From NCBI GenBank assembly GCA_964566225.1, contig CAZMHV010000001.1:21963-85962 (forward strand): a DNA stretch of 64,000 nucleotides. The letters run 5' to 3'. Every line of letters starts with the position of its first letter. Positions within the stretch are counted from its first letter, which is position 1. The DNA comes from an uncultured Gammaproteobacteria bacterium (GTDB lineage Bacteria; Patescibacteriota; Patescibacteriia; Magasanikbacterales; UBA922). The notes below the pieces were generated by a model. The model ran no database searches and was not told the DNA's origin. It worked only from the letters and a program-made list of their open reading frames with translations. The position numbers were made by a program, and so were the translations under genes. Positions 1,533 to 46,871 of the stretch are shown here, piece after piece.

Positions 1533-1624
1533 AAAACACCACTCAGTGGGTTCTCCACCTCGACTTTCTAAATGTTAGAAAAGCGAGGCGGGACACTGAG
1601 GGGTGTTTGTGGGGCAGCGGTGGA

Positions 1625-1849
1625 TCAGATCCACGCGCCGGGTCGGTTCGCCGCGAAGGGCTTGTCCGTCATGATGGACAGGAGGAGCGTCCCTGCACAG
1701 GCGCGATCCTCGCTGAGCTTGCTGTGGTATTTCTGGTGTTCTTCCTCGAGACCCCTGCGGGATTTCGGTTTGAAGAACAGGAACAGATCCACGGGCCATG
1801 ATGACTGAGTAAGATGGCCGCAATTGCCAGAACATTGACACAAAATCAT
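1625..1849 (-). CDS. small GC-rich hypothetical protein (74 aa), Cys/His-rich N-terminus (CQCSGNCGH)
   Basis: GGAGGT SD 6 nt upstream of ATG. Own TTGACT-17-TAAAGT promoter. Composition much GC-richer than flanks. No recognisable homology. Confidence 0.4.
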   Translation of the reverse strand: MILCQCSGNCGHLTQSSWPVDLFLFFKPKSRRGLEEEHQKYHSKLSEDRACAGTLLLSIMTDKPFAANRPGAWI

Positions 1850-1866
1850 GTGATACCTCCGGCACT

Positions 1867-1895
1867 ACTTTAGTTTCAAATTATAAAAAAGTCAA
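1867..1895 (-). promoter_or_regulatory. sigma70-like promoter (TTGACT-17nt-TAAAGT) for the 74-aa ORF; its -35 overlaps the sufB start region
   Basis: Hexamers read directly on the minus strand with exact 17-nt spacing. Confidence 0.4.
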
Positions 1896-1902
1896 GTATT
1901 GT

Positions 1903-3309
1903 ATGAAGCCCAAAAAAGCACAAATCACGCTCGATCGATCTCTCTACGACGACGCCAACACCGATCGATCCGTCTACAAAGCCAAACCAGGTGTTTCACG
2001 CGAGGTGATTTTGGAAATCAGTAAACAAAAAAATGAACCAGCGTGGATGCTCGAAAAGCGTCTCAAGGCTTTTGGGTATTACGAAGAAACTCCTGTGCCA
2101 ACATGGGGACCAGATTTATCAAAGTTAAATTTAGACGAAATTATTTATTTTATTCGTCCAAACGCGCAAGAAGAAAAAAAATGGGAAGACGTGCCAGAAG
2201 ACATTAAAAAAACTTTTGAAAAACTTGGAATTCCTGAGGCCGAAAAAAAAGCACTCGCTGGCGTGGGGGCGCAATATGATAGTGACGTGGTGTATCACAA
2301 CATCAAAGAAGATCTGAAAGCAAAAGGTGTTATTTTTGAAAACATGGATGTGGCGGTGCAAAAATATCCAGAGCTCGTGCAAAAATATTTTATGACGAGC
2401 TGCGTGCCGATCAATGATCACAAATTTGTGATGCTGCACGGCGCTGTGTGGAGTGGGGGAACATTTATTTATGTTCCAAAAAATGTGAAAGTTGGTTTGC
2501 CTTTGCAAGCATATTTTCGCATGAACGCAGAAAGTGGGGGACAGTTTGAACATACGCTTATTATTGCAGACGAAGGAAGTGAACTCGAATATATCGAAGG
2601 CTGCAGTGCTCCACGTTATACTACAAATTCTTTGCACGCGGGATGCGTAGAAATTTTTGTTCACAAAAATGCCAAAGTAAAATATTTTTCGATTGAAAAT
2701 TGGTCCAAGAATACATATAACCTCAATACGAAGCGTGCGCTCGTTGACCAAGATGCAAGTATTGAATGGGTTTCGGGAAATATGGGAAGTGGCGTCACCA
2801 TGCTTTATCCATGTTCAATTTTGCGTGGCCGAGGAGCACATTCTGATTCGCTCGGAATTGCATTCGCTGGTCCAGGTCAACACCAAGACACTGGTGCCAA
2901 AGCCATTCATGTGGCACCAAACACATCGTCAATTATTCGTTCACGTTCTATTTCGGTCGGTGGTGGTATTGCCGGATTCCGCGGACTCATTAAAGTAACA
3001 AAAAATGCAGTCCAGTCGACTGCATCCATGAGCTGCGATGCTTTGCTTCTTGATGAAGGTTCAAAAGCCGATACGTATCCTGCTTTGAAAATTGATACCA
3101 ACGATGTGTCTGTGGCACACGAAGCGCGTATTGGAAAAATTGGTGACGAACAATTATTTTATCTCATGAGTCGTGGCATGAGTGCAGAGCAGGCAATGCA
3201 GTTGATTGTGTCTGGATTTGTGGAACCGATTGTGAAGGCGTTGCCGCTTGAATATGCCATTGAGCTCTCTAAACTCATTGAACTTGAAATGGATGGGGCG
3301 GTGGGGTAA
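1903..3309 (+). CDS. sufB: Fe-S cluster assembly protein SufB
   Basis: 468 aa. Typical SufB sequence throughout (e.g. GAVWSGGTFIYVPKNVKV, C-terminal region). Confidence 0.9.
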   Translation: MKPKKAQITLDRSLYDDANTDRSVYKAKPGVSREVILEISKQKNEPAWMLEKRLKAFGYYEETPVPTWGPDLSKLNLDEIIYFIRPNAQEEKKWEDVPEDIKKTFEKLGIPEAEKKALAGVGAQYDSDVVYHNIKEDLKAKGVIFENMDVAVQKYPELVQKYFMTSCVPINDHKFVMLHGAVWSGGTFIYVPKNVKVGLPLQAYFRMNAESGGQFEHTLIIADEGSELEYIEGCSAPRYTTNSLHAGCVEIFVHKNAKVKYFSIENWSKNTYNLNTKRALVDQDASIEWVSGNMGSGVTMLYPCSILRGRGAHSDSLGIAFAGPGQHQDTGAKAIHVAPNTSSIIRSRSISVGGGIAGFRGLIKVTKNAVQSTASMSCDALLLDEGSKADTYPALKIDTNDVSVAHEARIGKIGDEQLFYLMSRGMSAEQAMQLIVSGFVEPIVKALPLEYAIELSKLIELEMDGAVG

Positions 3310-3318
3310 TTACTTTCT

Positions 3319-4515: not shown

Positions 4516-4904
4516 AACATATAATTTATACAATCATTTGGACGGTCGTAACCTCAACAATCGGATTGTTCGCGGGGCTCACCGGAGGAATGCTTCTTAC
4601 CCAATTTAGTGCATTGTCACTTCGCATTGGTGGGCTTGTGGGTTATGAAGCAAATGGATTTTTCCTTTCTCTTGTGGGATTATCCTTGGGTGGATTTTTG
4701 GGTGCGTGGAGTAGTCAAAAAATTTTAAAACAAAAAGGACAAAAATTCGTAGGAGCTCTTTTTGCTTTGCTCGGTCTTTTGTTTAACTTTTATTTTTCAG
4801 AAACTTTCGTCTATTTTCTTTTTCCAGTAGCGGTGGCAACGGCAATGAGTTTATATGGCTTTTATATGAAAAATATAACAACTGCATTTTTAAAAATGAA
4901 ATAG
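4512..4904 (+). CDS. small integral membrane protein (about 4 TM helices), function unknown
   Basis: Hydrophobic segments throughout. Translationally coupled inside the suf cluster. Confidence 0.5.
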   Translation: MKHIIYTIIWTVVTSTIGLFAGLTGGMLLTQFSALSLRIGGLVGYEANGFFLSLVGLSLGGFLGAWSSQKILKQKGQKFVGALFALLGLLFNFYFSETFVYFLFPVAVATAMSLYGFYMKNITTAFLKMK

Positions 4905-4905
4905 T

Positions 4906-5283
4906 GTGAGTGACCTTGACCCCCTGTACAAAGAAATCATCCTGGACCTCTATCGAAATCCGCTCAACAAAAAAGTGGTTCCTGAGGCAACCCACAAACA
5001 CAAAGAATTCAATCCAAGTTGTGGCGATGAAATTGAAATCATGATACAGTTTGACGAAGAGGGAAATGTGATTGATGTTGGGCACCAAGGACACGGCTGT
5101 GCCATTTCGCAGGCTGCGGTGTCACTTTTGACAGAAGAAATAAAAAATAAAAAAATACAAGATATTCAAAATTTTACCGAACAACAAAGTTTAGGACTCT
5201 TACCAATTGAGGTTTCTCCTAACCGCATAAAATGTGCTTTGCTCGGGTATAAAACACTTCTATCTATTACCTATGAAAAGTGA
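4906..5283 (+). CDS. sufU: Fe-S scaffold/sulfur acceptor SufU (IscU/NifU-like N-domain)
   Basis: NPSCGDEIEI and HGCAIS motifs carrying the three conserved Cys. Confidence 0.75.
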   Translation: MSDLDPLYKEIILDLYRNPLNKKVVPEATHKHKEFNPSCGDEIEIMIQFDEEGNVIDVGHQGHGCAISQAAVSLLTEEIKNKKIQDIQNFTEQQSLGLLPIEVSPNRIKCALLGYKTLLSITYEK

Positions 5284-6295
5284 AATTCCACCAATAAGAG
5301 AATATCAATTTACTCCTTTTCAAAAACAACTTCTTGATGTGGCAGAAAATTTTCAGCCTGGCTTAAGAGCTGAATTAGAGAATAACGTTTCATTATTGGA
5401 TCTTGAAGTTCGAGAAAAAAGACGTGCACTTATTATACTGGTAGAAAAAGTATATGAGGGAATAAACTTAGAAGATATCGCTCCAGAGATTCTTTCAAAA
5501 GCTGGAGTTGAAAAAATTTCTGAAACAGTATATCGAATCCAAATTGATTCACCCAAAGACATTCCTTTGCTCCCTACTGAGTTTGTATATGCCGGAGGCA
5601 CGGCACGGGCTTTGCTCCTGAGGTCACTTGGCATCGATGAAACTGCTTATCCTCGAGATTTTGATATTTTAACTTCGTTTCCTCTCGATCAAAATAATAA
5701 TTCTCCTCAAACCAAAGAAGTCGCTGAATTAGTGGGACATCCCGATATTGACTTTCAGCAGATGAAAAGTATTGAACATTATTTATCGACACGTGATTTT
5801 ACTATAAATGAATTATATGTGAGTGGTAATTCGTTGGTTGCCACCAAACAATGTATTCTCGATACAATTCGTGGGATTATTCGACTCACTGATTATGAAT
5901 ACAATGCATATGTAGAAGAAGGATTTTCGGATAATAAGCTTATTCTCAAAATGCTTCGATTTTATTCAGATGCACTTTCACGGGGTTTTGAAATGAATAT
6001 TGAGGAGCCAATGCAAATTGAACCCTATGGCTTATCATTATTTTGGATTGCTGTGAATATTGATAAAGCAATGGGTGTTGGGGACAAATCATTAGAGACG
6101 TTAATTATTACATTGAAAGCTGAGAAAGTTTTACCTGAGCATTTATTGACAACGGATGATATCTTACATTGGATTTATAAAGAAATGGAACCTCGAGGAT
6201 TTTATTTTCGGTATGTACCTAAGTCAGTATATAAACAGGAAGAAAATCTCATCCACCAAGATTTGCAAGATGAATATGATAAAAGATATGCTTAA
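5273..6295 (+). CDS. hypothetical protein, possible nucleotidyltransferase (Pol-beta-like GG..AR...D.D head motif); not SufD
   Basis: YAGGTARALLLRSLGIDETAYPRDFDIL resembles the CCA/poly(A) polymerase head domain. The start is ambiguous (5234 or 5273) and overlaps the sufU end. Confidence 0.4.
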   Translation: MKSEIPPIREYQFTPFQKQLLDVAENFQPGLRAELENNVSLLDLEVREKRRALIILVEKVYEGINLEDIAPEILSKAGVEKISETVYRIQIDSPKDIPLLPTEFVYAGGTARALLLRSLGIDETAYPRDFDILTSFPLDQNNNSPQTKEVAELVGHPDIDFQQMKSIEHYLSTRDFTINELYVSGNSLVATKQCILDTIRGIIRLTDYEYNAYVEEGFSDNKLILKMLRFYSDALSRGFEMNIEEPMQIEPYGLSLFWIAVNIDKAMGVGDKSLETLIITLKAEKVLPEHLLTTDDILHWIYKEMEPRGFYFRYVPKSVYKQEENLIHQDLQDEYDKRYA

Positions 6296-7016
6296 AATAA
6301 AAAACCTCCACGCCAGCGCCTCCGAAAAAGAAATCCTCCACGGGATTGATTTGACCATCAATCCTGGTGAAGTGCATGCTATTATGGGGCCAAATGGTTC
6401 AGGAAAATCCACTTTGGTGAACGTCCTCATGGGCCATCCAAATTATACCGTTCAAACCGGAGAAATTTTGTTGAATGGTGAAGATATTACCACTGCCAAG
6501 GTGACGGATCGTGCACGAAAAGGATTGTTTCTCTCCATGCAATATTTGCCAGAAATTGCTGGCGTTACGGTATCAAATTTTTTACGTACTGCAGTGACGG
6601 CACTCACGGGTGAAAAACAACATCCCGTGCAATTTCACAAAAGGTTGCTTGCCATTTTGGACGAGCTTGGGTTTGATGCGTCTTTTGCAGCGCGATATTT
6701 GAATGTTGGATTTTCTGGCGGTGAAAAAAAACGCCTTGAAACATTGCAGCTCAAAGTGTTGAAGCCTCAGTATGCACTCCTTGATGAAACAGATTCCGGA
6801 CTTGATGTGGATGCACTCAAAGTAGTAGGAAAGGGAATCAATGATTTTCGCTCACCCGAAAAAGGAATTTTGATCATCACTCACTACAATCGGCTCCTCG
6901 AATACGTGGTTCCAGATTTTGTGCACATCATGTATAATGGAAAAATCGTGAAAAGTGGGGGCAAAGAGTTGGCGCTCGAGATTGAAAAAAACGGATATGA
7001 AAAATATACCAAATAA
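6288..7016 (+). CDS. sufC: Fe-S assembly ATPase SufC
   Basis: MLKIKNLHASA...GEVHAIMGPNGSGKSTL Walker A, ABC signature SGGEKKR, Walker B LLDETDSGLD. The ORF-track N-extension overlaps the upstream gene, so the ATG at 6288 is chosen. Confidence 0.85.
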   Translation: MLKIKNLHASASEKEILHGIDLTINPGEVHAIMGPNGSGKSTLVNVLMGHPNYTVQTGEILLNGEDITTAKVTDRARKGLFLSMQYLPEIAGVTVSNFLRTAVTALTGEKQHPVQFHKRLLAILDELGFDASFAARYLNVGFSGGEKKRLETLQLKVLKPQYALLDETDSGLDVDALKVVGKGINDFRSPEKGILIITHYNRLLEYVVPDFVHIMYNGKIVKSGGKELALEIEKNGYEKYTK

Positions 7017-7017
7017 T

Positions 7018-7305
7018 ATGATTACCAAAGAAAGAGTCATCGAAGAACTCGAAACAATTTATGATCCGGAAATTAGTTTGGACCTGTGGACACTGGGACT
7101 CATTTACAATATTGAAATTGAAAGTGAAACCCATGTCAAAATTACCATGACGTACACGACGCCGCTGTGTCCATTTGGGCCGGCGATTAAAAACGAAGTA
7201 GAGGACGCTATGCATGATATTGGTTTCAAAACTGCAGAAATTGATGTGACGTTTGACCCACCTTGGAAACCACCAGAAAATCTCCGTACCATGCTTGGTT
7301 TGTAA
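7018..7305 (+). CDS. sufT: DUF59/MIP18-family Fe-S assembly protein (SufT-like)
   Basis: ETIYDPEISLDLWTLGLIYNIEI...TPLCPFGP is the conserved DUF59 core. Starts 2 nt after the sufC stop. Confidence 0.7.
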   Translation: MITKERVIEELETIYDPEISLDLWTLGLIYNIEIESETHVKITMTYTTPLCPFGPAIKNEVEDAMHDIGFKTAEIDVTFDPPWKPPENLRTMLGL

Positions 7306-7378
7306 AAAGAAAAAACAGCCGGTGAAGACTGTTTATTCTTATAAAAAAGATTCCAAATTTTTAGAACATTTTTGATAC

Positions 7379-7400
7379 GGGGCGGCTTTTACACCGCCCC
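7379..7400. terminator. strong GC hairpin (GGGGCGG-8nt-CCGCCCC) downstream of the 51-aa ORF; no adjacent U-tract
   Basis: 7-bp all-GC stem read directly. Lies 10 nt past the ORF stop on the minus strand. Confidence 0.4.
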
Positions 7401-7410
7401 AGAGTGAGGC

Positions 7411-7566
7411 TCAGGGCCCGCCGAAGAGGCGGAGCAGAGTCGTCAACCAGCCACCGTTGCACCCGATGGCGAACTCGCTGGCCTGGGCCGCGGTCGCCGT
7501 CAAGATGACGGTAGCGCCGGCGAGGACGTCGGCGTTCTCCTTGATCAGATTCATCAAATTTTTCAT
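7411..7566 (-). CDS. GC-rich small ORF, 51 aa (MKNLMNLIKENADVLAGATVILTATAAQASEFAIGCNGGWLTTLLRLFGGP), unknown function
   Basis: AGGAAA SD 5 nt before ATG. Very high GC3. Below the ORF-track length cutoff. Canonical promoter 120 nt upstream. Confidence 0.4.
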   Translation of the reverse strand: MKNLMNLIKENADVLAGATVILTATAAQASEFAIGCNGGWLTTLLRLFGGP

Positions 7567-7683
7567 GTCGTTTCCTAATCACTGTAGGATGTCGAAGAGA
7601 AAAAAACGAACTCTCCCGATGCCTCCTATTACGGAGGCCCTCGAATATACCTCATCACCGCTCCTTCTGCTGAGGTTCAACGC

Positions 7684-7712
7684 ACCATATCAAATTTATT
7701 TAATTTTGTCAA
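7684..7712 (-). promoter_or_regulatory. sigma70-like promoter (TTGACA-17nt-TATGGT) feeding a roughly 120-nt leader and then the 51-aa ORF
   Basis: Hexamers read on the minus strand. The leader holds an SD+ATG mini-ORF (MRYIRGPP), a GCCTCC/GGAGGC hairpin and a U-run. Confidence 0.35.
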
Positions 7713-7732
7713 GGAGTACTGTGGAAGAGTAT

Positions 7733-8038
7733 ATGAAACAAATTCGAGTCTGTGACAGCCGTTCGTGTACGGTTTTTGGCGCCCATTCTGTGATGGATGC
7801 AATTACCGAAGAAACTGGTTTAAAACCAGGCGAAAAAAACGAAAACTATGATGTGGATTGGTGTGGATGCCTTGGCTGGTGTTCTAATTCGCCAAATGTT
7901 GAAGTGGATGAAAAGCGAATTATTATGGAGGCTGACCCCAAAAACATTGTGCAGAGGATAGATAAAAACGAGGGTGAAGATATTACCGGAGAAATCATCG
8001 ATATTTTCAAAATGGATAATTTTTTGGGTGATTTATAA
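7733..8038 (+). CDS. thioredoxin-like [2Fe-2S] ferredoxin (NuoE/HoxF-N family)
   Basis: VCDSRSCTVFGAHSV...VDWCGCLGWCSNSP gives the four-Cys pattern. The real start is taken at 7733, not the upstream GC-rich extension. Confidence 0.6.
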   Translation: MKQIRVCDSRSCTVFGAHSVMDAITEETGLKPGEKNENYDVDWCGCLGWCSNSPNVEVDEKRIIMEADPKNIVQRIDKNEGEDITGEIIDIFKMDNFLGDL

Positions 8039-14184: not shown

Positions 14185-14192
14185 AGGGAATA

Positions 14193-33265: not shown

Positions 33266-33303
33266 TTTTTCACCCCACATTCCACAACCGGGGGAGGAGC
33301 ACC

Positions 33304-34180: not shown

Positions 34181-34251
34181 TTTTTCAGAAAGGAGTCTCT
34201 AGTACGACTTTTACTCGAGAGTGTCTCACCCAAGAAAAAGGAAGATATCCC

Positions 34252-34467
34252 ATGGGGATTAGTCCGGAAGAACTCAGAAGGTTGAGAGAAGAAATCGGCC
34301 AGGTCGGCAGGGGCGAGCCGGTCGACGGGGTCTATGTGCTCATGCACAACGGTGTGGTGCACAGAGATCACAACGGTCAGTCCGTCGCTCCCGATGATCC
34401 ATTCTGGAACAGCGACGAAGCCGTCCTCGAGCGCCGGCGTGTCGAGCGCGAAAAGGCAGGATCCTGA
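34252..34467 (+). CDS. GC-rich small hypothetical protein (71 aa)
   Basis: AAAGGAAG SD and canonical promoter. No homology recognised. The antisense ORF 34159..34479 is rejected. Confidence 0.35.
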   Translation: MGISPEELRRLREEIGQVGRGEPVDGVYVLMHNGVVHRDHNGQSVAPDDPFWNSDEAVLERRRVEREKAGS

Positions 34468-34638
34468 ATCCACACGCACCGTCCTCTTCAGCCCCGCGAG
34501 TGGCTGGCGTCAAGAGGAATTTTTTCAACTCGCCTAGGGGGCGCCCGGATCATGAAGACGCACATTGATCCGGCACTGACTATTTATTTTATTTGTTAGA
34601 ATAAATTGAGGTGACTTCTTTAAGAGTACATTGAGGTA

Positions 34639-35447: not shown

Positions 35448-35568
35448 CCACTTAACTTAAAGCAAAAGAACTTCCTCTCAAAAATAAGAGATGGAAAGTT
35501 GTTTGACAAAATTCAATACTTGCTATATACTTGACAACTCAAGCACTTATCAATGATATATACAGAAT

Positions 35569-36002: not shown

Positions 36003-37766
36003 ATGAGTACAAATTCTCCTGTTGAAGAAAAAGAAAAAAAATCCAAACGCCCGCAAGGCCCCAATATTTTTGGCATTTTAAAACCCTATCGCAAATGGGT
36101 GTTTTTGCTTATTGGTCTTGCCCTCGCCAGTAATATTACCAACTTGTTTATCCCCAAAACTATTGGAAAGGGAATCGACGCATTTGTACACGGCACGCTC
36201 GACAAAGATGCGCTCATGCTCAAATTTATTTTCATGGCTGTGGCTATTTTGATTTTCACCGCACTGCAAAACATTGTACAAACCTATACTTCCGAACGCG
36301 TGGCTCGTGATTTGCGGGGTCAACTGGCCGCAAAAATTTCTCGCCAAAGTTATTCGAGTATTCAGGAGCTCACTCCAGCGCGCCTCTTGACCAACCTCAC
36401 TTCAGACATGGACGCCATCAAAATGTTTGTGTCCATGGCCATTGTGTCGATTGTTTCATCACTCTGTCTTATTATTGGTGCGAGTATTTTGCTCATTTCT
36501 ATTGATTGGAAACTCGCTCTTGCGGTGCTCACCATCATACCACTCATTGGTGTCAGTTTTTTCTATATTTTTTCCAAAATTGGATCATTGTTCAAAGTTT
36601 CTCAGGGAGTGATTGATAAACTCAACAAAGTCATTAACGAAAGTATTTTGGGTTCTTCACTTATTCGTGTGCTCAACTCACAAACTGACGAATACAATAA
36701 ATTTATTGTCGTCAATGGTGAAGCCAAAGATGTGGGGCTCAAAATTTTGCGTTTGTTTTCGTCCCTCATTCCTGTGGTAATTTTTATTTCCAACATGGCC
36801 CTCCTTATTATTTTGGCGCTTGGTGGAAAGTTTGTGATTAATGGTGACATGACACTCGGCAGCATGAGTGCATTTTTGAGTTATGTAGGACTTTTGATTT
36901 TCCCTATTATTATGCTTGGTTTCATGAGTAATCTCATTGCTCGTTCTTCGGCATCGTATGCACGTATTGCCGAAGTCCTCAGTCGTCCGGAACTCCCACC
37001 GACTGGCACTCTCACCAATACATTGCGTGGTGATGTAGTGGTTGAAAATCTCTCACTTGAACTCAATAAAAAACCGGTGCTCAAAGAAGTTTTTTTTGCT
37101 GTCCCTGCGGGCACCAAAACGGCTATTATTGGTCCCACGGCTGCTGGCAAAACACAACTGCTCTATGTGCTCACTGGACTTTTGCCAGCAAACTCTGGAA
37201 AAATTTTGTTTGATGGACAATCTCTTGAAACCTATAATCCAGAATCATTGCACGAGCAAATTGGATTTGTGTTTCAGGATAGTATTATTTTCAATTTGAG
37301 TGTGCGCGAAAACATTGCGTTTAGTGACACTGTGCAAGATGCAGATTTGCAAAAGGCGATTGAAACTGCAGAACTTCAAGACCTCATTGAATCACTTCCC
37401 GAAAAACTGAACACGGTTATTTCTGAACGTGGTACGACTTTGTCCGGTGGCCAAAAACAACGTATTATGCTCGCTCGTGCACTCGCACTGAACCCAAAAA
37501 TATTATTGCTCGATGATTTTACCGCGCGTGTGGATAGTCTCACCGAAAAGAAAATTCTCGAAAACATTGAAAAAAATTATCCTGGCCTCACACTCATTTC
37601 TGTGACGCAAAAAATTTCTTCCATTGAACACTACAACCAAATTGTGCTGCTTATGGAAGGAGAAGTTTTGGCCAAAGGAACGCATGATGAATTGACTCAT
37701 TCTTCAACAGAATACATGCAAATTTATCAGTCACAAAGAAGTACGAGTCACTACGAAGAAGTATGA
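36003..37766 (+). CDS. ABC exporter, fused permease/ATPase (ABCB type), subunit 1
   Basis: 6-TM N-half. NBD with Walker A GPTAAGKT, LSGGQKQR, Walker B LLLDDFTARVD. Confidence 0.85.
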   Translation: MSTNSPVEEKEKKSKRPQGPNIFGILKPYRKWVFLLIGLALASNITNLFIPKTIGKGIDAFVHGTLDKDALMLKFIFMAVAILIFTALQNIVQTYTSERVARDLRGQLAAKISRQSYSSIQELTPARLLTNLTSDMDAIKMFVSMAIVSIVSSLCLIIGASILLISIDWKLALAVLTIIPLIGVSFFYIFSKIGSLFKVSQGVIDKLNKVINESILGSSLIRVLNSQTDEYNKFIVVNGEAKDVGLKILRLFSSLIPVVIFISNMALLIILALGGKFVINGDMTLGSMSAFLSYVGLLIFPIIMLGFMSNLIARSSASYARIAEVLSRPELPPTGTLTNTLRGDVVVENLSLELNKKPVLKEVFFAVPAGTKTAIIGPTAAGKTQLLYVLTGLLPANSGKILFDGQSLETYNPESLHEQIGFVFQDSIIFNLSVRENIAFSDTVQDADLQKAIETAELQDLIESLPEKLNTVISERGTTLSGGQKQRIMLARALALNPKILLLDDFTARVDSLTEKKILENIEKNYPGLTLISVTQKISSIEHYNQIVLLMEGEVLAKGTHDELTHSSTEYMQIYQSQRSTSHYEEV

Positions 37767-39523
37767 AAAACTATACCTTAAATACAACTCAAAACAAAAA
37801 AAGTAGCATGTGGGGAGCCCTGCGCAAAATGTATGCGTACATGAGTGATGAAAAGGGAACACTGCTTGTGGCGCTTGTAGCTACCATTATCAACTCCAGT
37901 TCTAATTTGTTGGGGCCATATATTTTTGGTCTTACGATTGATAAATTTATTATCAAAAAAGATTATGATGGAGTTTTGTATTACTCCCTTATTTTGTTTG
38001 GCATTTACGTTATTTCTTTTCTTGCACACAACGTACAAATGCGTCTCACTGGTGGAGTTGGACAGCGAGTGCTCTTTAAACTGCGCAATACTATTTTCAA
38101 TAAATTGCAATCTTTGCCAGTATCATTTTTTAACTCCAACAAAATTGGGGACTTGATTTCCCGCATCAACAATGACACAGATAAACTCAATCAATTTTTT
38201 TCTGAAACCCTCACCAGATTTATTGGAAGTATCTTTATTATTGGTGGTGCCGGTGCTTTTGTTGTGATTATTCATCCTCGACTTGGGCTTGCAGCACTTG
38301 TGCCTGCGCTTCTTATTTTAATTTTCACTCGTGTCATGTCACCACTTGTCAAAAGAAAAAATACCAAAGCATTGCAATCGACCGGCGTCATGAGTGCAGA
38401 GATTCAAGAAAGTTTGAATAACTTCAAAGTGATTGTGGCCTTTCACCGTCAGGATTATTTTCAAAAGAAATTTAGTGAAGTGAACCAAAAGAATTTTGAT
38501 GCGTCGATTGGTTCAGGTATTGCCAACACGATTTTTACCCCAATTTATGACTTTGCGGCCAACGCCGCACAGCTGATTGTGTTTGGCTATGGTGTGTACC
38601 TAATCATGCAAGGAGATTTGACTGTGGGACTCATGATTAGTTTTATTTCATACATGAATCGTTTTTACGATCCACTCAAACAAATGGCCATGCTGTGGGC
38701 GTCATTTCAAACAGCACTCGCAGGATGGGATCGTGTGGCTGAAATTTTGGCACTCGAATCTGACCTTACGGTGAGTGGCCAAGAGAACAATGTGTTGCCA
38801 GGGGCCAAATTACTCGAATTTCGTGATGTATCATTTCGGTATATTCCCGAAAAAGACGTGTTGAAACATTTTAATTTTCATTTGGAAAAAGGAAAAACCT
38901 ATGCACTTGTGGGACCAACCGGTGGTGGCAAAACAACCACGGCTTCACTCATGGCACGTTTGTTTGATCCAAGCGAAGGACAAATTCTTTTGAATGGCAA
39001 AGACTTGCGTGATTACACCGAAGAAGAACGCACCCAAAAAATTGGTTTTATTTTGCAAGAACCATTTTTGTTCACTGGCACGGTGGCGGAAAATATTGTC
39101 TATGGAAACAAAAAGTACGAGGGACTTGCCGGAGACGAATTATTGAAAGTTTTGCAAGACCATAACTTTGAAACATTGCTCGCACGTTTTGACGAAGGAC
39201 TCGAAACCAAAATTACAACCAGTTCAGATACCATGAGTCTTGGTCAAAGACAGCTCATTGCTTTCATGCGCGCAGTACTTCGTCACCCAGAAATTTTGAT
39301 TCTTGACGAAGCCACCGCCAACATTGATACAGTCACCGAACAACAACTCGAAGATATTTTGAGCAAGCTTCCAGCCGAGACCACCAAGGTTATTATTGCA
39401 CACCGTCTCAACACCATTGAAAATGCTGACGATATATTTTTTATCAACGACGGTCAGCTCACCGAAGCTGGATCACTTGACCATGCCGTGAGTATGCTGC
39501 TCGAGGGCAAGCGGGTGAGTTAA
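37763..39523 (+). CDS. ABC exporter, fused permease/ATPase (ABCB type), subunit 2
   Basis: Walker A GPTGGGKTT, LSLGQRQL, Walker B LILDEATANID. Overlaps subunit 1 by 4 nt, suggesting a heterodimer. Confidence 0.85.
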   Translation: MKNYTLNTTQNKKSSMWGALRKMYAYMSDEKGTLLVALVATIINSSSNLLGPYIFGLTIDKFIIKKDYDGVLYYSLILFGIYVISFLAHNVQMRLTGGVGQRVLFKLRNTIFNKLQSLPVSFFNSNKIGDLISRINNDTDKLNQFFSETLTRFIGSIFIIGGAGAFVVIIHPRLGLAALVPALLILIFTRVMSPLVKRKNTKALQSTGVMSAEIQESLNNFKVIVAFHRQDYFQKKFSEVNQKNFDASIGSGIANTIFTPIYDFAANAAQLIVFGYGVYLIMQGDLTVGLMISFISYMNRFYDPLKQMAMLWASFQTALAGWDRVAEILALESDLTVSGQENNVLPGAKLLEFRDVSFRYIPEKDVLKHFNFHLEKGKTYALVGPTGGGKTTTASLMARLFDPSEGQILLNGKDLRDYTEEERTQKIGFILQEPFLFTGTVAENIVYGNKKYEGLAGDELLKVLQDHNFETLLARFDEGLETKITTSSDTMSLGQRQLIAFMRAVLRHPEILILDEATANIDTVTEQQLEDILSKLPAETTKVIIAHRLNTIENADDIFFINDGQLTEAGSLDHAVSMLLEGKRVS

Positions 39524-39570
39524 CAAGAGAAACAAAAACCAAAAACTGCTCCACAAGGGCAGTTTTTGTA

Positions 39571-39599
39571 TTGACATTTTTGTGTTTTGGGTGTACTGT
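39571..39599 (+). promoter_or_regulatory. sigma70-like promoter TTGACA-17nt-TACTGT for the GC-rich ORF; preceded by a weak terminator hairpin (39545-39563)
   Basis: Read directly. Confidence 0.45.
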
Positions 39600-39636
39600 C
39601 CGAGCATCACCAACCATCGCCCGAAAGGGGCAAACC

Positions 39637-40062
39637 ATGGCACGCGAAGATTGGAATGAGATTCAGCTCGGCCTCGTCGAGCGGATGAAGCGGGCTTTTG
39701 AGCACTGGCTCACCAAGAACAGCTGGAACGAGGAAGGTCCGTACAAGAAGGACATTCCGGAGCTTCGTCGCATTGTGGAGCGGAGCTTCAACTTGCTCCG
39801 CCTCTACAAGACGGAGGATCACCCGGGAGTCAAGTTCCTGATCATCCTGGGGGACCAGTACCTCGCGCGCTACGGGCAGTTGGCCCTGCCCACGGACGAG
39901 GACTGCTCGGCCCACAACTCCTCCTACCAGATGGAGAACCGGCTCATCCGCATGTTCATCCACGCGGGTTTCGAGCTGTGGGGCTTCTGCGTCATCCCGC
40001 AGATCAATAACCCCAAAACCAGCGCCGAGCCGTACTACATCGTGGTGGTGAAGATGCCCTGA
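39637..40062 (+). CDS. GC-rich hypothetical protein (141 aa)
   Basis: GGGG SD. Very high GC3 in this frame only. No homology recognised. Confidence 0.5.
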   Translation: MAREDWNEIQLGLVERMKRAFEHWLTKNSWNEEGPYKKDIPELRRIVERSFNLLRLYKTEDHPGVKFLIILGDQYLARYGQLALPTDEDCSAHNSSYQMENRLIRMFIHAGFELWGFCVIPQINNPKTSAEPYYIVVVKMP

Positions 40063-40182
40063 GCATCGACGTCCAAGGGGGGAGGAGGGGACGCATAAAG
40101 ATCATCAATTTTGGTGGTCTTTTTTGTTTGTGGGGATAACTCCCCTTGACTCTCACGTTACGTCATGGTTTAAAGTAGGTAT

Positions 40183-40938
40183 ATGAAAGAGTATTCTATT
40201 CAACAACTGGCCACCCTCGCAGGAGTCAGTGTGCGCACACTGCACTACTACCATGAAATTGGCCTGCTCACTCCTGCCCATGTCAAAAGCAATGGGTATC
40301 GTTACTATGGTGAAAAGCAATTGCTCTTGCTGCAACAAATTCTTTTTTTCAAAGAGCTCGAATTTCCACTTGATGAAATAAAAAGAATTGTGAAGTCGCC
40401 GTATTTTGATATGGAAACTGCTTTGCAGGAGCAAAAAAAAATGCTCTTGCTCAAAAGGAAACGAGTAGAAAAACTTATTCAAACCATTCATAAAACTTTA
40501 CAAAGTATGAAACAAGATGAAAAACTCCAAGACGAAGAATTGTATGATGCCTTCAAAGACGATGATGTCAAACAGTACCAAGACGAAGTCAAACAGCGTT
40601 GGGGCAACACCGATGCGTACAAACAAAGCATGGCGCGCGTGGGCAAAATGACCAAAGCGCAAATGGATAAATTTAAAGAAGATGGAAAAAAATTTACACA
40701 AAAACTTGCTGACGCAATGGATAAAGATATACAGAGTAAAGAAGTACAAGACCTGATTGTCGAGCACTACAAAGGCATTCAATTTTTTTATGACTGTCCA
40801 CTCGATATGTATCGTAACCTCGGAAAAATGTATGTCGATGATGCACGATTCACTGCGTACTATGATACGTTTCGGCCAGGGCTTGCCGTGTTTGTGCGTG
40901 ATGCGATTGAATATTTTTGTGAGGTAAATAAAAAGTAA
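40183..40938 (+). CDS. MerR-family transcriptional activator with C-terminal TipAS-like drug-binding domain (TipA/Mta type)
   Basis: N-terminal HTH YSIQQLATLAGVSVRTLHYYHEIGLL, followed by a coiled coil and C-terminal domain. Confidence 0.75.
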   Translation: MKEYSIQQLATLAGVSVRTLHYYHEIGLLTPAHVKSNGYRYYGEKQLLLLQQILFFKELEFPLDEIKRIVKSPYFDMETALQEQKKMLLLKRKRVEKLIQTIHKTLQSMKQDEKLQDEELYDAFKDDDVKQYQDEVKQRWGNTDAYKQSMARVGKMTKAQMDKFKEDGKKFTQKLADAMDKDIQSKEVQDLIVEHYKGIQFFYDCPLDMYRNLGKMYVDDARFTAYYDTFRPGLAVFVRDAIEYFCEVNKK

Positions 40939-40985: not shown

Positions 40986-41178
40986 TTTTGGAATTTCGTC
41001 CTGGCTCCGTATTGGCTGTGGACTCATCAGATTCTGCATCACAGAATGATTCCCCCAGATGCTTGCCGAGTCAAGCTTCTGGGTCATGCTTCTTTCTCCT
41101 TAGTGAGAAGCATCCTTGTTGTGGGTGATCAATGAAGATCATTGTTGCCAAGAGGTCTCGGTGTCTCTTGGCAGGTGC

Positions 41179-41520
41179 TCACGTGCCGGTGGCTTGCCGC
41201 AGGTCCTCGTGGAACTGCGCGCCGTCGAACAGGCGCTCACTCTGCGCGGGCTGGGCGTGGTGGCCCACGAGGGAGTCGAACATCCCCTCGCGGTCGTCAT
41301 CGACCAGTTCCACCTCCCCGGGCCAGCCGTCTTCGTGTCCGTCGACCCGGTCCGTGGTCACGCTCACCTCGGTGTCCACGTCCATCACGTGCGGGGCGGC
41401 GTTGGCCGGCTGGGTGTGGACCACCTGCACGACCACGGTTTCGGCCGGGGGCGTGGCGAGGTAGGCGGGCGTTCCGCGCATGGCGGGGCGGGGGGCGTCG
41501 TCGCTCATCCAAGGAAACAT
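41179..41520 (-). CDS. GC-rich acidic hypothetical protein (113 aa: MFPWMSDDAPRPAMRG...)
   Basis: GGAGAG SD 5 nt before ATG. GC3 about 90% in this frame. Overlapping ORFs in the other five frames are treated as GC shadows. Confidence 0.45.
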   Translation of the reverse strand: MFPWMSDDAPRPAMRGTPAYLATPPAETVVVQVVHTQPANAAPHVMDVDTEVSVTTDRVDGHEDGWPGEVELVDDDREGMFDSLVGHHAQPAQSERLFDGAQFHEDLRQATGT

Positions 41521-41581
41521 GGTTCTCTCCGTCTCGTGAAGGCAAGCTCTCGCTCGCCGTTGGGTTCGCCCGTCGATCGCG

Positions 41582-41628
41582 GGCACCAAAAAATTTTTGT
41601 CTCCGAGACTTAAAAATTTTTTGGTGCC
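41582..41628. repeat. 47-nt near-perfect palindrome: 17-bp perfect arms GGCACCAAAAAATTTTT / AAAAATTTTTTGGTGCC around an inner GTCTC-CGA-GAC mini-hairpin
   Basis: Arms are exact reverse complements. Lies between two co-directional GC-rich ORFs. Confidence 0.75.
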
Positions 41629-41716
41629 TACGATTTTTTTTGAGAAATTGAAATGGCGGGCGGTGCAGTTCTCCTTTCTATTGATGCACCGTGTTTGCCA
41701 CCCCGAAATGGGAAGA

Positions 41717-42085
41717 TCAGTGGACGTCGGCGTCGCCCTTGGGGAGGTACGAGCCCTCCTCCAGGGTGAACTCGTCGTCGATCACGGAGGTGATCTGGTA
41801 GCGGATTTCGCCCGTCACCATATCCCGTTTCACGATCATGCGCGTCTCCACTGGGCGACATGTCTCGAAGTCGTCGTACTGGTGGTTCTTCACCGCCTGC
41901 TTGACGATGTCTTCGCCAGCGTCGTGCTCGTCGCACTTGGGCGACACATCCACGGTCGGCGCGGGCCGACGGATGAACGTGATGGCCTCGTCCTTTTGGG
42001 GCTGCAGCGGGTTCATCACCTGCCACAGGCCGAAGAAGAACATGGCCATCAGCGCCGCAATCTGGGCAAAGAGCTTCCAGCTCAT
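41717..42085 (-). CDS. GC-rich membrane-anchored hypothetical protein (122 aa; N-terminal TM MSWKLFAQIAALMAMFFFGLWQVM)
   Basis: GGAGAGGG SD. High GC3. One TM helix then a soluble domain. Confidence 0.45.
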   Translation of the reverse strand: MSWKLFAQIAALMAMFFFGLWQVMNPLQPQKDEAITFIRRPAPTVDVSPKCDEHDAGEDIVKQAVKNHQYDDFETCRPVETRMIVKRDMVTGEIRYQITSVIDDEFTLEEGSYLPKGDADVH

Positions 42086-42306
42086 GTAAATCCCTCTCCA
42101 GTCAACATGGTTGTCAAACAAACGGTGACATCGCACCGCCATTTCAACTTCTCAATATAAATGCCAAAATACAGCAATTTCGCTGTACCGTTTGAGTTGT
42201 AAGAAACTGAGATGGGTGCGGCGCGACAGACAGAAGATCCTCCTGGATTCTTCTGCTGTATCGCTTACCCCCACCACCTGCTCGAGTCGCCGTTCGTCCG
42301 TGAGGA

Positions 42307-42480
42307 CTACTGGCGGCGGCTGGGCAGGTCGCCCGCCGGACGCGTCCGGGGCGGGCTGTTGAACCAGGCCTCTTCGACGGGGTCGAACCCGTCCTTCTCA
42401 CCCGGGTTGTTCGGACCCTCCGGACCGGGGATCTCGATGCAGGGGGTGGCGTCGGTGGTGATGTTCCTCTCGGGGGCCAT
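42307..42480 (-). CDS. GC-rich Pro/Gly-rich small ORF (57 aa)
   Basis: GGAGA SD, high GC3, downstream hairpin. The antisense ORF 42212..42628 is a competing call. Confidence 0.3.
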   Translation of the reverse strand: MAPERNITTDATPCIEIPGPEGPNNPGEKDGFDPVEEAWFNSPPRTRPAGDLPSRRQ

Positions 42481-42587
42481 TGGGGGTCTCCGTATTCTAG
42501 TTCCCGTTACCACGGGAGGGGCGGGGGTAAGTGCGATTGGTATCGCGCCGCCATCTCAATTTCCTTCAATTGTAAACGGGAAAGGAT

Positions 42588-42616
42588 ATCACAAAACAAA
42601 GTTTTTGTCAAGTCCT
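42588..42616 (-). promoter_or_regulatory. sigma70-like promoter TTGACA-17nt-TATCCT on the minus strand, heading a roughly 110-nt leader into the GC-rich cluster
   Basis: Read on the minus strand. Coordinates are approximate (within a few nt). Confidence 0.35.
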
Positions 42617-42743
42617 GGGAGTGGATAAAATAAAATTATTTACCTAAAATAAGCAAAAAAGTGAAATATTGAAAGAAATTTTGGTACCCTCCTGTAGTAT
42701 ACATAGAACCGGCTAGCCAACAACTTATCTTTAATTATTTCGT

Positions 42744-43199
42744 ATGAAGACACCATTCAATAAAAAGTATATAGCTATTCCAGCCATTGCAGCCCTCGGC
42801 ATATTTGCCGGCGGCACAGCCTTGGCTCATGGTGGACCAAGTTTTCTATGGAAGACCGACCCTGCAACTGCGGCCACTCAGTGGGAACAAAAACTCACGC
42901 AAGAAGCAGATATTTTGGGCATTAGTGTCGATGAAATGAAAACCAATTGGGCAGCGGGCAAAGGTGTGCGTGAAATTGCCAAAGAAAAAGGCATCAGTGA
43001 TGCTGATCTGCAAAAAAAATTTCAAGTAGCACGTGAACAACACCAAAAAGATATGCTTCAGAGTTTGGTGAGCCAAGGAAAAATTACACAGGCGCAGGCA
43101 GATGCCAGGCTCAAATTTATGAAAGATAATCAAGGAAAAAAACAAAATAAATCTGTTCATGGGCGAATGATGCATTCACCAGGCTCCATGATGCAATAA
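42744..43199 (+). CDS. secreted hypothetical protein with His/Met-rich C-terminus (HGRMMHSPGSMMQ)
   Basis: Signal peptide MKTPFNKKYIAIPAIAALGIFAGGTALA. Helical repeats. Confidence 0.5.
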   Translation: MKTPFNKKYIAIPAIAALGIFAGGTALAHGGPSFLWKTDPATAATQWEQKLTQEADILGISVDEMKTNWAAGKGVREIAKEKGISDADLQKKFQVAREQHQKDMLQSLVSQGKITQAQADARLKFMKDNQGKKQNKSVHGRMMHSPGSMMQ

Positions 43200-45037: not shown

Positions 45038-45063
45038 TCTACAAAAAATTTAATATCCAAACT

Positions 45064-46047
45064 ATGAAAAAATATATACTGGGTGTCGTAATTATTCTTG
45101 TCGTGGGTTTTGGCATGGTTCTTGCCTTTCAAAAAAAATCATCGACTCCTGCCCAAAAACAAAATGAACAAAAAATAGATGTGGTGGTTACTTTTTATCC
45201 ACTCGAGTACATTGCAACACAGGTTGGTGGAGACTTGGTGAATGTGTCAATGCTTACTCCAGCTGGGGGAGAGCCGCATGATTATGATCCAACCGCACAA
45301 GACATTATCAAAATCCGTACGAGTGATCTTTTTGTCATGAATGGTGCAGACTTTGAACCTTGGGCCGAAAAACTCTTGCCAGAATTAGAAAAAGAAAAGG
45401 TACACTTTATTGAAATGTCAGAACATGTTGAGTTGCTCAAAGCAACCGAACATGGAGATGAACACACTGAAGAAGGTGAAGCCACCGAAGAAGTTGGACA
45501 CCATCATGAAATGGGGGAGTTTGATCCACATTTTTGGCTCAGTCCTACTCGATTGCAACAAGAGGTAAAAATACTTGCAACAACACTTTCAGAAATTGAC
45601 CCACAAAACGCAAGTACGTATCAAAAAAATGCAGAAGTGTTATTGAATAAAATTGTGAGTATTGAAAATGAATATAAAAAAGGACTTGCAAATTGTACAA
45701 AAAAAGAAGTTGTGACTTCTCATAATGCTTTTTCATATCTTGCAAGTGATTATAACTTTGAGGTTCACGGGATTGCAGGACTTTCTGTATCTGAAGAACC
45801 ATCAGCACAGCACCTTGCAGAGTTGACTCAACTGGTGAAAGATGAAGGTATTGAATATATTTTTACTGAGACTTTGGTAAGTCCAAAGTTTGCAAATACT
45901 CTGGCAAAGGAAACAGGAGTAATGGTAGCTATATTAAATCCACTTGAAGGTTTGAACGAGCAAGAAAAAAAAGAAGGAAAAAATTTGGAAACAATTCTTT
46001 TTGAAAATTTAAAAAATCTTCAAAAGGGATTAGATTGTCGTGGATAA
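45064..46047 (+). CDS. znuA: periplasmic metal-binding protein of ABC transporter (TroA/ZnuA family, likely zinc) with His/acidic-rich loop
   Basis: Lipoprotein-like signal. Cluster-9 SBP fold motifs. Loop HGDEHTEEGEATEEVGHHHEMGEFDPHFW is typical of ZnuA/AdcA. No adjacent znuBC. Confidence 0.7.
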   Translation: MKKYILGVVIILVVGFGMVLAFQKKSSTPAQKQNEQKIDVVVTFYPLEYIATQVGGDLVNVSMLTPAGGEPHDYDPTAQDIIKIRTSDLFVMNGADFEPWAEKLLPELEKEKVHFIEMSEHVELLKATEHGDEHTEEGEATEEVGHHHEMGEFDPHFWLSPTRLQQEVKILATTLSEIDPQNASTYQKNAEVLLNKIVSIENEYKKGLANCTKKEVVTSHNAFSYLASDYNFEVHGIAGLSVSEEPSAQHLAELTQLVKDEGIEYIFTETLVSPKFANTLAKETGVMVAILNPLEGLNEQEKKEGKNLETILFENLKNLQKGLDCRG

Positions 46048-46116
46048 ACAAAATAAATATAAAAATAGCAAAAAAGACTTTCCGTTGGGAGGTCTTTTTT
46101 TGTCCACAGGGGAGTA

Positions 46117-46146
46117 TTGACAAATGCAACTGAGTTGCATTAGTAT
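46117..46146 (+). promoter_or_regulatory. second copy of promoter/operator module: TTGACA-18-TAGTAT with palindrome AATGCAAC-TGA-GTTGCATT (46123-46141)
   Basis: Nearly identical to 44939-44967, including the upstream TCCACAGG. Confidence 0.6.
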
Positions 46147-46197
46147 GTAATTGAGAATAATCCGTCAATTATCCACGACCAACAGGGAGTAGTCCAC

Positions 46198-46818
46198 ATG
46201 CACTGGTTTTTTATTGCCATTATTGTCGTTTGTCTGTTTCCGATGAGCGTCTTGGCTCAGGTTCAGGCATATATCGTCGGTCGTACTCAGGCCGAGATTC
46301 TTTTGGAACTGCCGTGGAACTATGAAACCAGCGGTGGTTGGGAATTCAATCACTATGTTCTCACTGAGTCGGAGAATGTCACTGAAGGATTCCTGGGGCT
46401 TGGGACGGGAATCGGGATCGTTGGAGACGATATGGAATTGGAGGTGGGGCCACTGTGGCATGCAGATGAAGGTGAACTCGCTGTTTCGGCAGCTCTGTTC
46501 ATTTTGATGCATGACAAGGTCCGACTCGATTTTCATGGGCATGCGTCTTTGGAGGAATCGCATGGTGTGGCTGCTTTGGGGTATGTCTTTACCGATTGGT
46601 TTTTTGCGGGTTTGGTTGCCGAAGTGAGCCGAAATCCAGAGGCGATTCTTTCTCTTGGTGGTGCTTATCTGGCAGGGGTGTATCACCACCATTCTCGTGT
46701 GAAATTCTCAATGCTTTTTGGTACGTTTGCCTCTGGTTATGAAATCCCCGAGGATAAGCGTTTTCGGATCGCGTATATCGTTCCGACCTTGACGCTGGAA
46801 TTTCACTTTCATTTGTAG
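46198..46818 (+). CDS. GC-richer secreted beta-rich protein (206 aa), His-containing; possible small beta-barrel/OMP-like fold
   Basis: Signal peptide MHWFFIAIIVVCLFPMSVLAQVQA. Alternating hydrophobic pattern. C-terminal TLTLEFHFHL. Terminator hairpin at 46822-46845. Confidence 0.5.
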   Translation: MHWFFIAIIVVCLFPMSVLAQVQAYIVGRTQAEILLELPWNYETSGGWEFNHYVLTESENVTEGFLGLGTGIGIVGDDMELEVGPLWHADEGELAVSAALFILMHDKVRLDFHGHASLEESHGVAALGYVFTDWFFAGLVAEVSRNPEAILSLGGAYLAGVYHHHSRVKFSMLFGTFASGYEIPEDKRFRIAYIVPTLTLEFHFHL

Positions 46819-46871
46819 CATGCCGGGGCAGAACCTCGGCATGCCAGTGACTTGCTTTTTTCACTTTTTTT

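Follow-up and report, generated by a model that had tools for sequence, protein, structure and literature searches.

Seven GC-rich islands in a low-GC bacterial chromosome: probable horizontally acquired, moron-like transcription units with rapidly exchanged payloads

What places small GC-rich genes, many of them with their own promoter and terminator, among the housekeeping genes of a low-GC chromosome? The question is raised by a 64,000-nucleotide (nt) stretch of contig CAZMHV010000001.1 (the window, meaning the whole stretch of DNA analyzed), in which seven GC-rich islands, numbered here 1 to 7 from left to right, hold ten open reading frames (ORFs), island 4 being made up of 4a and 4b and island 6 of 6a, 6b, and 6c. 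The original prediction, which had drawn attention to the islands, offered horizontal acquisition, chimeric assembly, and engineering as explanations, and only the first of these survived our analysis. The reading that we consider probable is that the islands consist of accessory transcription units gained by horizontal transfer, each of a single gene and once of three genes, which occupy intergenic hotspots and take a form like that of the morons of phages.

The window as a whole has a GC content of 40.4%, and its composition is bimodal. The host ORFs (n = 49) have a GC content of 39.1 ± 3.2% and a GC content at third codon positions (GC3) of 0.33 ± 0.07, and the ten island ORFs stand apart from them in both measures, with 48.6–70.8% GC (mean 60%) and a GC3 of 0.50–0.91 (mean 0.77). 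When the 64 kb were scanned blind for 200-nt windows exceeding the median GC content by more than 0.12, which were merged and retained at a length of at least 300 nt, exactly seven segments were returned (1494–1875, 7297–7686, 20360–20874, 33194–34624, 39542–40172, 41000–42980, and 46254–46596), and these are the seven islands that had been predicted. The GC-rich share is 8.9% of the window, compared with a mean of 0.9% when the same scan was applied to 60 unrelated low-GC loci totaling 1.08 Mb. Uniform composition is ruled out by the ORF values and the threshold scan alike, although the flanks lie at ~39–40% GC rather than the 35% first claimed, and a GC3 near 90% holds for five of the ten ORFs (islands 2, 5, 6a, 6b, and 6c), with the others at 0.50–0.76; island 7 is the weakest in composition (48.6% GC, GC3 0.50). 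In its composition, the coding sequence of the payloads is foreign to the host. The payloads are also heterogeneous, with GC contents of 49–71% and identities that include a REC domain, a HAD-like protein, and orphans, plus a CMAS-like sequence and a second HAD in relatives, and this spread of composition and function speaks for more than one source or more than one age.

The content of the islands differs between close strains. A scan of GTDB representatives with the ABC exporter encoded at 37763–39523 gave no match above 61% identity, and strain comparisons were therefore made with Logan contigs. The sister strain, represented by contigs of run SRR25018341 (L083, L086, and L094), has a backbone identity to the window of 93.8–94.8% at the nucleotide level, and the comparison of orthologous loci that the original prediction had proposed shows islands 4a and 6 kept, 4b absent, and the payloads of islands 3 and 5 replaced. 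Island 4a (33237–34138, + strand) is 91.6% identical in nucleotides and 87% identical in amino acids (aa) in L083, and island 6 is 93.8% identical in L086 between flanks of 94–95%, with 6a at 85% aa identity. L083 lacks a 1354-nt segment (34146–35498) in which 4b lies together with a CN-hydrolase gene of low GC content; the 7-nt direct repeat TTGTTTG stands at both ends of this segment (34139–34145 and 35492–35498), which is consistent with illegitimate recombination at short repeats or with target duplication.

At islands 5 and 3, the payload itself has been exchanged. Island 5 (39571–40122, +) behaves as a socket: the promoter (TTGACA-17-TACTGT, 39571–39599), the 5′ untranslated region (UTR) up to the ATG at 39637, and the 3′UTR with its terminator (hairpin and T-run, 40097–40122, +) are conserved in L086, and the 141-aa ORF between them (39637–40062, +; 59% GC, GC3 0.87) is swapped for an unrelated 263-aa GC-rich ORF, with homology breaking at the start codon and just past the stop. 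In a third strain (L091, run SRR13076510), the same frame of promoter, UTR, and terminator encloses an island 5 allele of 77% identity. At island 3 (20285–20886, −), homology to L094 ends at 20862, inside the promoter (TTGACA-17-TATAAA, 20886–20858), and a different 123-aa GC-rich ORF takes the place of the 122-aa stand-alone REC ORF (20454–20822, −). The same sites in an 80% relative (L087 and L088) are occupied by a 223-aa orphan, a HAD unlike that of the window, part of a CMAS-like sequence, and a membrane-anchored ORF of 85 aa, and in a 72% relative (L089) no GC-rich ORF was found in the 20 kb around the merR-like gene. Payload turnover is much faster than that of the backbone, and a host-like frame persists through payload exchange at island 3 (the −35 side), island 5 (promoter, 5′UTR, and terminator), and islands 6b and 6c (inverted-repeat arms, described below). 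Neither this swapping of payloads in conserved promoter/UTR frames, nor the inverted-repeat frames, nor the fast protein evolution was part of the original prediction.

The signals placed around the payloads are those of the host. A promoter of the form TTGAC[AT]-17/18-TAnnn[TA] lies 17–117 nt upstream of eight of the ten island ORFs, the exceptions being 6a and 6b, and a purine-rich stretch resembling a Shine-Dalgarno (SD) sequence stands 6–10 nt before the ATG of all ten, in agreement with the strong SD first described. The strict promoter pattern is matched 13 times in the window, compared with 6.0 ± 2.7 times in shuffled sequences, and 7 of the 13 matches are directly upstream of island ORFs. 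All six hexamer pairs that had been quoted with 17-nt spacers are present, and 6c (TTGACA-17-TATCCT) and island 7 (TTGACA-18-TAGTAT) bring two others. Hairpins, likewise noted as frequent, form terminators with a T-run after islands 3, 4a, and 5 and occur as GC hairpins after islands 1, 2, and 7 (those of 2 and 7 by eye), not every unit being covered. The uniform promoter grammar had been taken for the most striking property of the islands, a view that did not hold: the grammar belongs to the host and is not an insert signature, because host transcription units carry the same TTGACA/T-17/18-TAnnnT form, at 14251 (−) for gene 11503–14199, at 29349 (+) for tRNA-Thr, at 35503 (+) for marR, and at 44939 (+) for znuA.

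The same promoter form was also met outside the window. In a distant relative (L092, from another run), it precedes a GC-rich orphan ORF, a 33%-identical homologue of the island 5 protein (1290–1857; 55% GC, behind TTGACT-17-TATTCT) that adjoins low-GC sequence in a gene neighborhood different from that of the window. In two unrelated loci of low-GC metagenome-assembled genomes (MAGs), both fetched by the ABC-exporter query, it again stands before GC-rich orphan ORFs: L057 has GC-elevated orphan ORFs at 4759–7659, two of them directly behind TTGACA-17/18 promoters, and L024 has them at 563–1117, 7500–7809, 12399–12872, and 17902–19196, one behind TTGACT-16-TAGACT. The pattern of GC-rich ORFs may be wider than this lineage.

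As to where the payloads come from, two have recognizable domains, as had been predicted, one of them firmly. The REC ORF matches PF00072 with E = 4e-15, and its acidic, Asp, Ser/Thr, and Lys residues are at about the expected positions as judged by eye. The HAD ORF of island 4a (33304–34017, +; 237 aa, 58.5% GC, GC3 0.76) falls under the Pfam cut-off (E = 7.5e-4 and 8e-3) and is supported by homologues named HAD-like hydrolases and by a DxDxT motif. Apart from one 87% sister allele, its relatives are 34–49% identical, the nearest outside ones 44–49%; those with names are proteins of Myxococcales, Myxococcota, or Deltaproteobacteria MAGs, and one is an unremarkable gene of a contig in which the gene segments sampled have 62–70% GC. 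Best-hit taxonomy, a check suggested in the original prediction, leads from the HAD ORF to MAGs with Myxococcota and Deltaproteobacteria labels; most of the island ORFs are orphans. The 6b ORF had no homologue besides its sister allele among 5.8e9 proteins, the island 5 ORF matched four cluster representatives among 1.84e9 proteins, and tblastn of the REC protein against plasmids gave identities of at most 35%.

A phage origin was considered and rejected: PHROGs returned generic REC and PNK-phosphatase-like matches alone, scans of IMG/VR with three payload proteins and the inverted-repeat motif found no relatives, and the flanks are chromosomal housekeeping genes. PADLOC, run on the 10 payloads, gave no meaningful match to a defence system. 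The case for repeated horizontal acquisition from GC-rich sources, the surviving part of the original prediction, is made by the bimodal composition, by payloads that are mostly orphans or have no more than distant relatives in GC-rich MAGs, and by presence, absence, and replacement between close strains.

The payloads also evolve differently from the genes around them. Ratios of nonsynonymous to synonymous divergence (dN/dS) were estimated by the Nei–Gojobori method between the window and the sister strain for the HAD ORF, 6a, 6b, and host genes, and between the window and L091 for island 5. The values are 0.53 for HAD, 0.97 for 6a, and 1.9 for 6b (on few substitutions), compared with 0.025–0.084 for seven host genes, and the substitutions in 6a and 6b are spread nearly evenly over the codon positions (9/6/5 and 10/8/8). 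The island 5 gene has a dN/dS of 0.22 at a dS of 0.69, and the neighboring host ABC gene 0.053 at a dS of 0.53, so the island 5 gene is constrained, functional, and no less diverged than its flank. The island ORFs, at 0.22–1.9 against 0.03–0.08 for the host, are under relaxed or diversifying selection.

If the islands are acquired transcription units, foreign DNA would enter, plausibly through the DNA-uptake/competence machinery known from Patescibacteria, or by recombination with related strains that hold other payloads at the same site. It would become fixed at a small number of intergenic positions that tolerate insertion, either by homologous recombination in conserved flanks and frames or by illegitimate recombination at short repeats, and a payload would be expressed only where a host-type promoter and SD precede it. 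The transcripts would probably be stabilized by their terminators and by the pairing of 5′ with 3′UTR that folding predicts. Some payloads would be functional, as the dN/dS of island 5 and the REC residues suggest, and 6a and 6b may be decaying or diversifying.

Several observations weigh against this reading. Plain transfer leaves unexplained both the precise abutment of an AT-rich, host-type promoter, SD, and UTR on GC-rich ORFs and the island 5 breakpoints at the start codon and just past the stop. The GC3 of the island 5 gene is held at 0.87 in the window and 0.84 in L091 over a dS of 0.69, which is not predicted by neutral amelioration in a 40% GC genome, and C↔G exchanges account for 20 of its 47 third-position differences, compared with 8 of 40 in the host gene; its divergence looks like one gathered under a high-GC regime, whether by repeated re-sampling from a GC-rich pool or through a GC-maintaining force. 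A dN/dS of 1 or so and above on few substitutions may mean that 6a and 6b are non-functional genes, and the conserved inverted-repeat frame around unrelated ORFs hints at something more specific than generic hotspots. The payloads point to no donor by sequence comparison, the best outside match being below 50% aa identity, and the assignment of the host to a phylum is built on the names of best matches alone. Because plain horizontal transfer does not explain the abutment, the ORF-level breakpoints, and the GC3 retention, a more specific mechanism of cassette exchange is kept open.

Such a mechanism could be a dedicated cassette system, in which fixed sockets, some of them bounded by the conserved inverted repeat TTGAGAARTTGAAATGGCGG, would be the substrates of recombination or transposition by an enzyme encoded elsewhere, in the manner of integrons or mobile insertion cassettes (MICs). 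We regard it as unlikely. Inverted copies of TTGAGAARTTGAAATGGCGG bracket 6b and 6c and also the one cassette, with an 85-aa ORF, that L087/L088 have at the orthologous site, so that one frame surrounds three unrelated ORFs. In 6b (41633–42162, −), the arms (41633–41659 and 42136–42162; 27 nt, 89%) enclose a 122-aa ORFan with an N-terminal hydrophobic helix (41717–42085, −; 61% GC, GC3 0.89). In 6c (42197–42611, −), whose promoter is TTGACA-17-TATCCT (42611–42583), a diverged copy of the repeat (arms 42197–42220 and 42546–42569; 24 nt, 79%) frames a 57-aa orphan (42307–42480, −; 71% GC, GC3 0.91), and the same A-to-G change is found in both arms, which preserves their pairing. The third member, 6a (41179–41634, −), has no consensus promoter of its own and consists of a 113-aa orphan (41179–41520, −; 71% GC, GC3 0.90) and a hairpin (41576–41634); the 6c promoter probably drives 6c-6b-6a.

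The exchange at island 5, bounded by start and stop codons, and the very high turnover would likewise suit a dedicated system, but other findings speak against one. No integrase, transposase, tyrosine recombinase, or phage structural gene was found among the large ORFs of the 64 kb with Pfam and NCBIfam, and no direct repeat indicative of target-site duplication is visible by eye at the arm ends. Within the window the TTGAGAARTTGAAATGGCGG motif is confined to a single locus, and in L086–L088 it stands at the orthologous position, so that it looks vertically inherited rather than dispersed; islands 1, 2, 4, 5, and 7 have no inverted-repeat frame. The arms of island 3 (5′ arm 20838–20855, 3′ arm 20431–20448; 18 nt, 89%), which lie around the REC ORF and join the 5′ end of the transcript to the sequence just past the stop, are unrelated to TTGAGAARTTGAAATGGCGG. 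Searched for in JGI metagenomes, the 21-nt frame motif has a single match (L090, 845–865), in an unrelated contig of high GC content where a small ORF follows closely; this match is at chance level and most likely coincidental.

A more speculative variant, to which we give somewhat less weight still, is an integron-like platform for gene sampling that works without an integron. Fixed intergenic sockets made up of a host promoter, an SD/5′UTR, and a terminator, some of them bracketed by a conserved inverted repeat that pairs the ends of the transcript, would have unrelated GC-rich ORFs swapped into them much faster than the backbone diverges, and the retained GC3 and the C↔G excess would reflect re-sampling of high-GC DNA from a host or neighbors, taken up by the competence machinery of an epibiont.

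It is also rather improbable that the islands are non-functional debris, that is, GC-rich fragments taken up from host cells or neighbors, inserted illegitimately and now decaying, with promoters that are pre-existing host signals and ORFs that are open for want of stop codons. The dN/dS of about 1 or more in 6a and 6b with substitutions even over codon positions, the many overlapping long ORFs in several frames of island 6, and the orphan status of most payloads would all fit decay, but purifying selection acts on the island 5 gene, the REC ORF has its residues, by eye, at about the expected positions, and the HAD ORF has the DxDxT motif. A correctly spaced SD in every ORF and a promoter in eight of ten are far above chance, and the payloads are full ORFs, not random fragments.

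We think it very doubtful that the islands are native genes whose GC-richness is kept by selection, for instance for very stable mRNAs paired at their ends. RNA folding gives this idea its appeal: predicted minimum free energy and centroid folds close the 6b and island 3 cassettes through their arms (the two whole-cassette z-scores are −5.0 and −9.7), and the island ORFs fold more stably than their dinucleotide shuffles (mean z ~ −1.7), compared with ~0.0 for host controls and ~ −0.1 for native high-GC genes. The retention of GC3 over a dS of 0.69 points the same way. However, only 3 of the 10 ORFs have z below −3, for which reason RNA structure was rejected as a universal property of the payloads, and half of the ORFs have no excess structure; close strains carry unrelated payloads at the same site, the 72% relative has none, and the HAD relatives are in GC-rich lineages.

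An assembly chimera, or contamination of the bin that joined GC-rich reads into a low-GC contig, is scarcely credible. The abrupt steps in composition within metagenome-derived sequence could raise the suspicion, but the junctions are the same in two assemblies of individual runs: the segment from sufS through island 1 to sufB has 0 mismatches over 3458 nt with a Logan contig of SRR16481186 assembled alone (L001), and island 4 with both of its flanks has 0 mismatches over 1596 nt with a contig of SRR16481187 (L002). Contigs of another study's run (SRR25018341) again contain islands 4a and 6, which have diverged naturally by ~6–8%, island 5 recurs in a third sample (SRR13076510), collinear host genes surround the islands, and exact host proteins are also found on a 324,723-nt NCBI contig. 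The identical junctions and the recurrence in the latter two runs also dispose of engineered or synthetic inserts, an explanation of next to no probability despite the textbook layout of promoter, SD, ORF, and terminator, since the host is of an uncultured lineage without a close genome (ABC transporter at most 61% identical), host genes have the same promoter type, and the alleles diverge naturally, by synonymous and nonsynonymous changes, across several environmental runs.

The remaining units can be described briefly. Island 1 (1534–1895, −) has the promoter TTGACT-17-TAAAGT (1895–1867), the SD GGAGG, a 74-aa orphan (1625–1849, −; 56% GC, GC3 0.69), and a compound hairpin (1534–1608) that it has in common with the end of sufS. 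Island 2 (7372–7712, −) has the promoter TTGACA-17-TATGGT (7712–7684), a 51-aa orphan (7411–7566, −; 62% GC, GC3 0.87), and a GC hairpin, GGGGCGG..CCGCCCC, at ~7379–7400. Its 117-nt leader (7567–7683, −) contains an SD, an upstream ORF of eight codons (MRYIRGPP*), and then a GGCCTCC..GGAGGC hairpin with a T-run, a layout that, as read from the sequence, resembles a leader-peptide attenuator. The terminator of island 3 is a hairpin with a T-run at 20385–20428. Between it and the end of the host gene (20265) lies a stem of 27 perfectly paired bp that closes a 23-nt loop (20285–20361); Rfam at 20283–20363 gave a sub-threshold match to mir-4679 alone, which was judged meaningless, and as there was no other Rfam signal the element was taken as merely a long hairpin. 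Island 4a has the promoter TTGACT-17-TACATT (33237–33265, +) and a long-loop terminator (hairpin and T-run, 34065–34138, +). Island 4b (34146–34600, +) has the promoter TTGACT-17-TAGTAT (34152–34180) and a 71-aa orphan (34252–34467, +; 60% GC) followed by two hairpins. Island 7 (46117–46870, +) has the promoter TTGACA-18-TAGTAT (46117–46146), a 206-aa orphan with a signal-peptide-like N-terminus (46198–46818, +; 48.6% GC, GC3 0.50), and, by eye, a hairpin and T-run at ~46819–46870 (+).

Among known systems, the islands are closest in form to the morons of HK97/HK022-type phages, which are independent units of deviant GC content with their own sigma70-type promoter and terminator, inserted as extra DNA where relatives have the two flanking genes side by side, and present, absent, or different in close genomes (PMC3594210). 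They differ in having no phage context, their flanks being suf, uppP, gpsA, ABC exporters, merR, and znuA, and in exchanging payloads within conserved frames. The moron-like units of the window lie on a chromosome, are packed very densely, are rich in GC within a streamlined genome of low GC content, and swap payloads inside conserved frames. Patescibacteria are known to have acquired many individually transferred genes and islands, for which competence was proposed as a route, and their hotspots likewise place deviant accessory genes between conserved core genes in streamlined genomes of the candidate phyla radiation (CPR), with DNA uptake as one proposed route (PMC12455944). In that work, the transfers are mostly intra-phylum and the word "promoter" has no occurrence; the islands described here differ as one-gene islets of 0.3–1.6 kb, seven of them in 64 kb, with a promoter and terminator, a much higher GC content, and exchange of one ORF for another.

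Integron cassettes and clusters of attC sites lacking integrases (CALINs) share with the islands a small size, mostly a single ORF, foreign composition, many orphans, imperfect inverted repeats at the borders, and fast turnover. In contrast to them, no IntI was found among the large ORFs of the window, the repeats of the islands flank the ORF on both sides instead of forming a single 3′ attC, and most islands have a promoter to themselves, lie in either orientation, and are spread across 45 kb rather than gathered in one array. MIC231-type mobile insertion cassettes, or cargo-carrying miniature inverted-repeat transposable elements (MITEs), are passenger genes enclosed by terminal inverted repeats of ~20 nt with no transposase. 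The cassettes of 6b, 6c, and L088 resemble them in that terminal inverted repeats bracket the ORF and differ in that the data at hand contain no target-site duplication, dispersed copies, or cognate insertion sequence, and in that the frame is at an orthologous locus in relatives. The mRNAs of hok-type (type I) toxin-antitoxin systems fold back by pairing of their 5′ and 3′ ends. In the predicted folds of islands 3, 6b, and 6c, the 5′ end of the mRNA similarly pairs with a region past the stop, and the 6b and L088 ORFs have hydrophobic N-termini; the island ORFs, at 57–122 aa, are not short toxins, however, and the payloads are unrelated. No antisense RNA was identified with Rfam, antisense promoters not having been examined.

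The chromosome that carries the islands is a compact, mostly one-strand housekeeping array (suf, uppP, gpsA, cca, prsA-like, znuA, recQ, an M3 peptidase, and ABC exporters). Judged by its protein matches, the organism is probably an ultra-small, Patescibacteria-like bacterium: the ABC exporter is at best 55–61% identical to proteins of Bacteroidota and of Peribacteria, Magasanikbacteria, Saccharibacteria, and other CPR MAGs, and the merR-like gene has 60–72% relatives named Gracilibacteria, Patescibacteria, Parcubacteria, or Magasanikbacteria, with synteny common to a Magasanikiibacteriota contig. The merR/TipAS-type regulator (40183–40938) has islands 5 and 6, the two most variable sites, on either side of it in three of three related lineages, and its ATG follows its promoter (TTGACT, a 17-nt spacer, and TTTAAA) with hardly any leader between them. 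Apart from the mir-4679 hairpin match, Rfam searches of the window at gathering thresholds and at E ≤ 1 returned just three tRNAs, Gly-CCC at 26000, Thr-CGT at 29406, and Gln-TTG at 31745. These are interspersed with a KilA-N gene (27451–28266), a NUDIX gene, and low-GC orphans (26200–27198 and 31998–33032), and the region 26000–33032 may be a low-GC accessory region or prophage remnant, separate from the GC-rich islets; the KilA-N domain is the sole phage-flavored domain in the window, and no island adjoins it. Farther downstream, a 1934-aa protein (57062–62866) has helicase-C/DEAD/HA2 matches alone, in its first ~470 residues, and the listed ORF at 62950–63630 (−) is spurious, as a Logan contig has a + strand gene from ~62974 past the window end.

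If the islands are indeed acquired transcription units, ~9% of the window, part of a streamlined chromosome, would consist of rapidly exchanged, expression-ready foreign mini-genes, and modular gene acquisition of the moron type would operate outside phages. The swap of payloads in conserved frames and the inverted repeats that pair the transcript ends are testable leads to the mechanism. The islands would further provide a sequence-defined way to trace gene flow into Patescibacteria, including from their usually unidentified hosts, and the phylogeny and GC content of the payloads could point to such a host. The payloads themselves comprise small proteins of the secreted or membrane type, a receiver that stands alone, and phosphatases; all of them evolve fast, and they would be candidates for strain-specific interaction factors.

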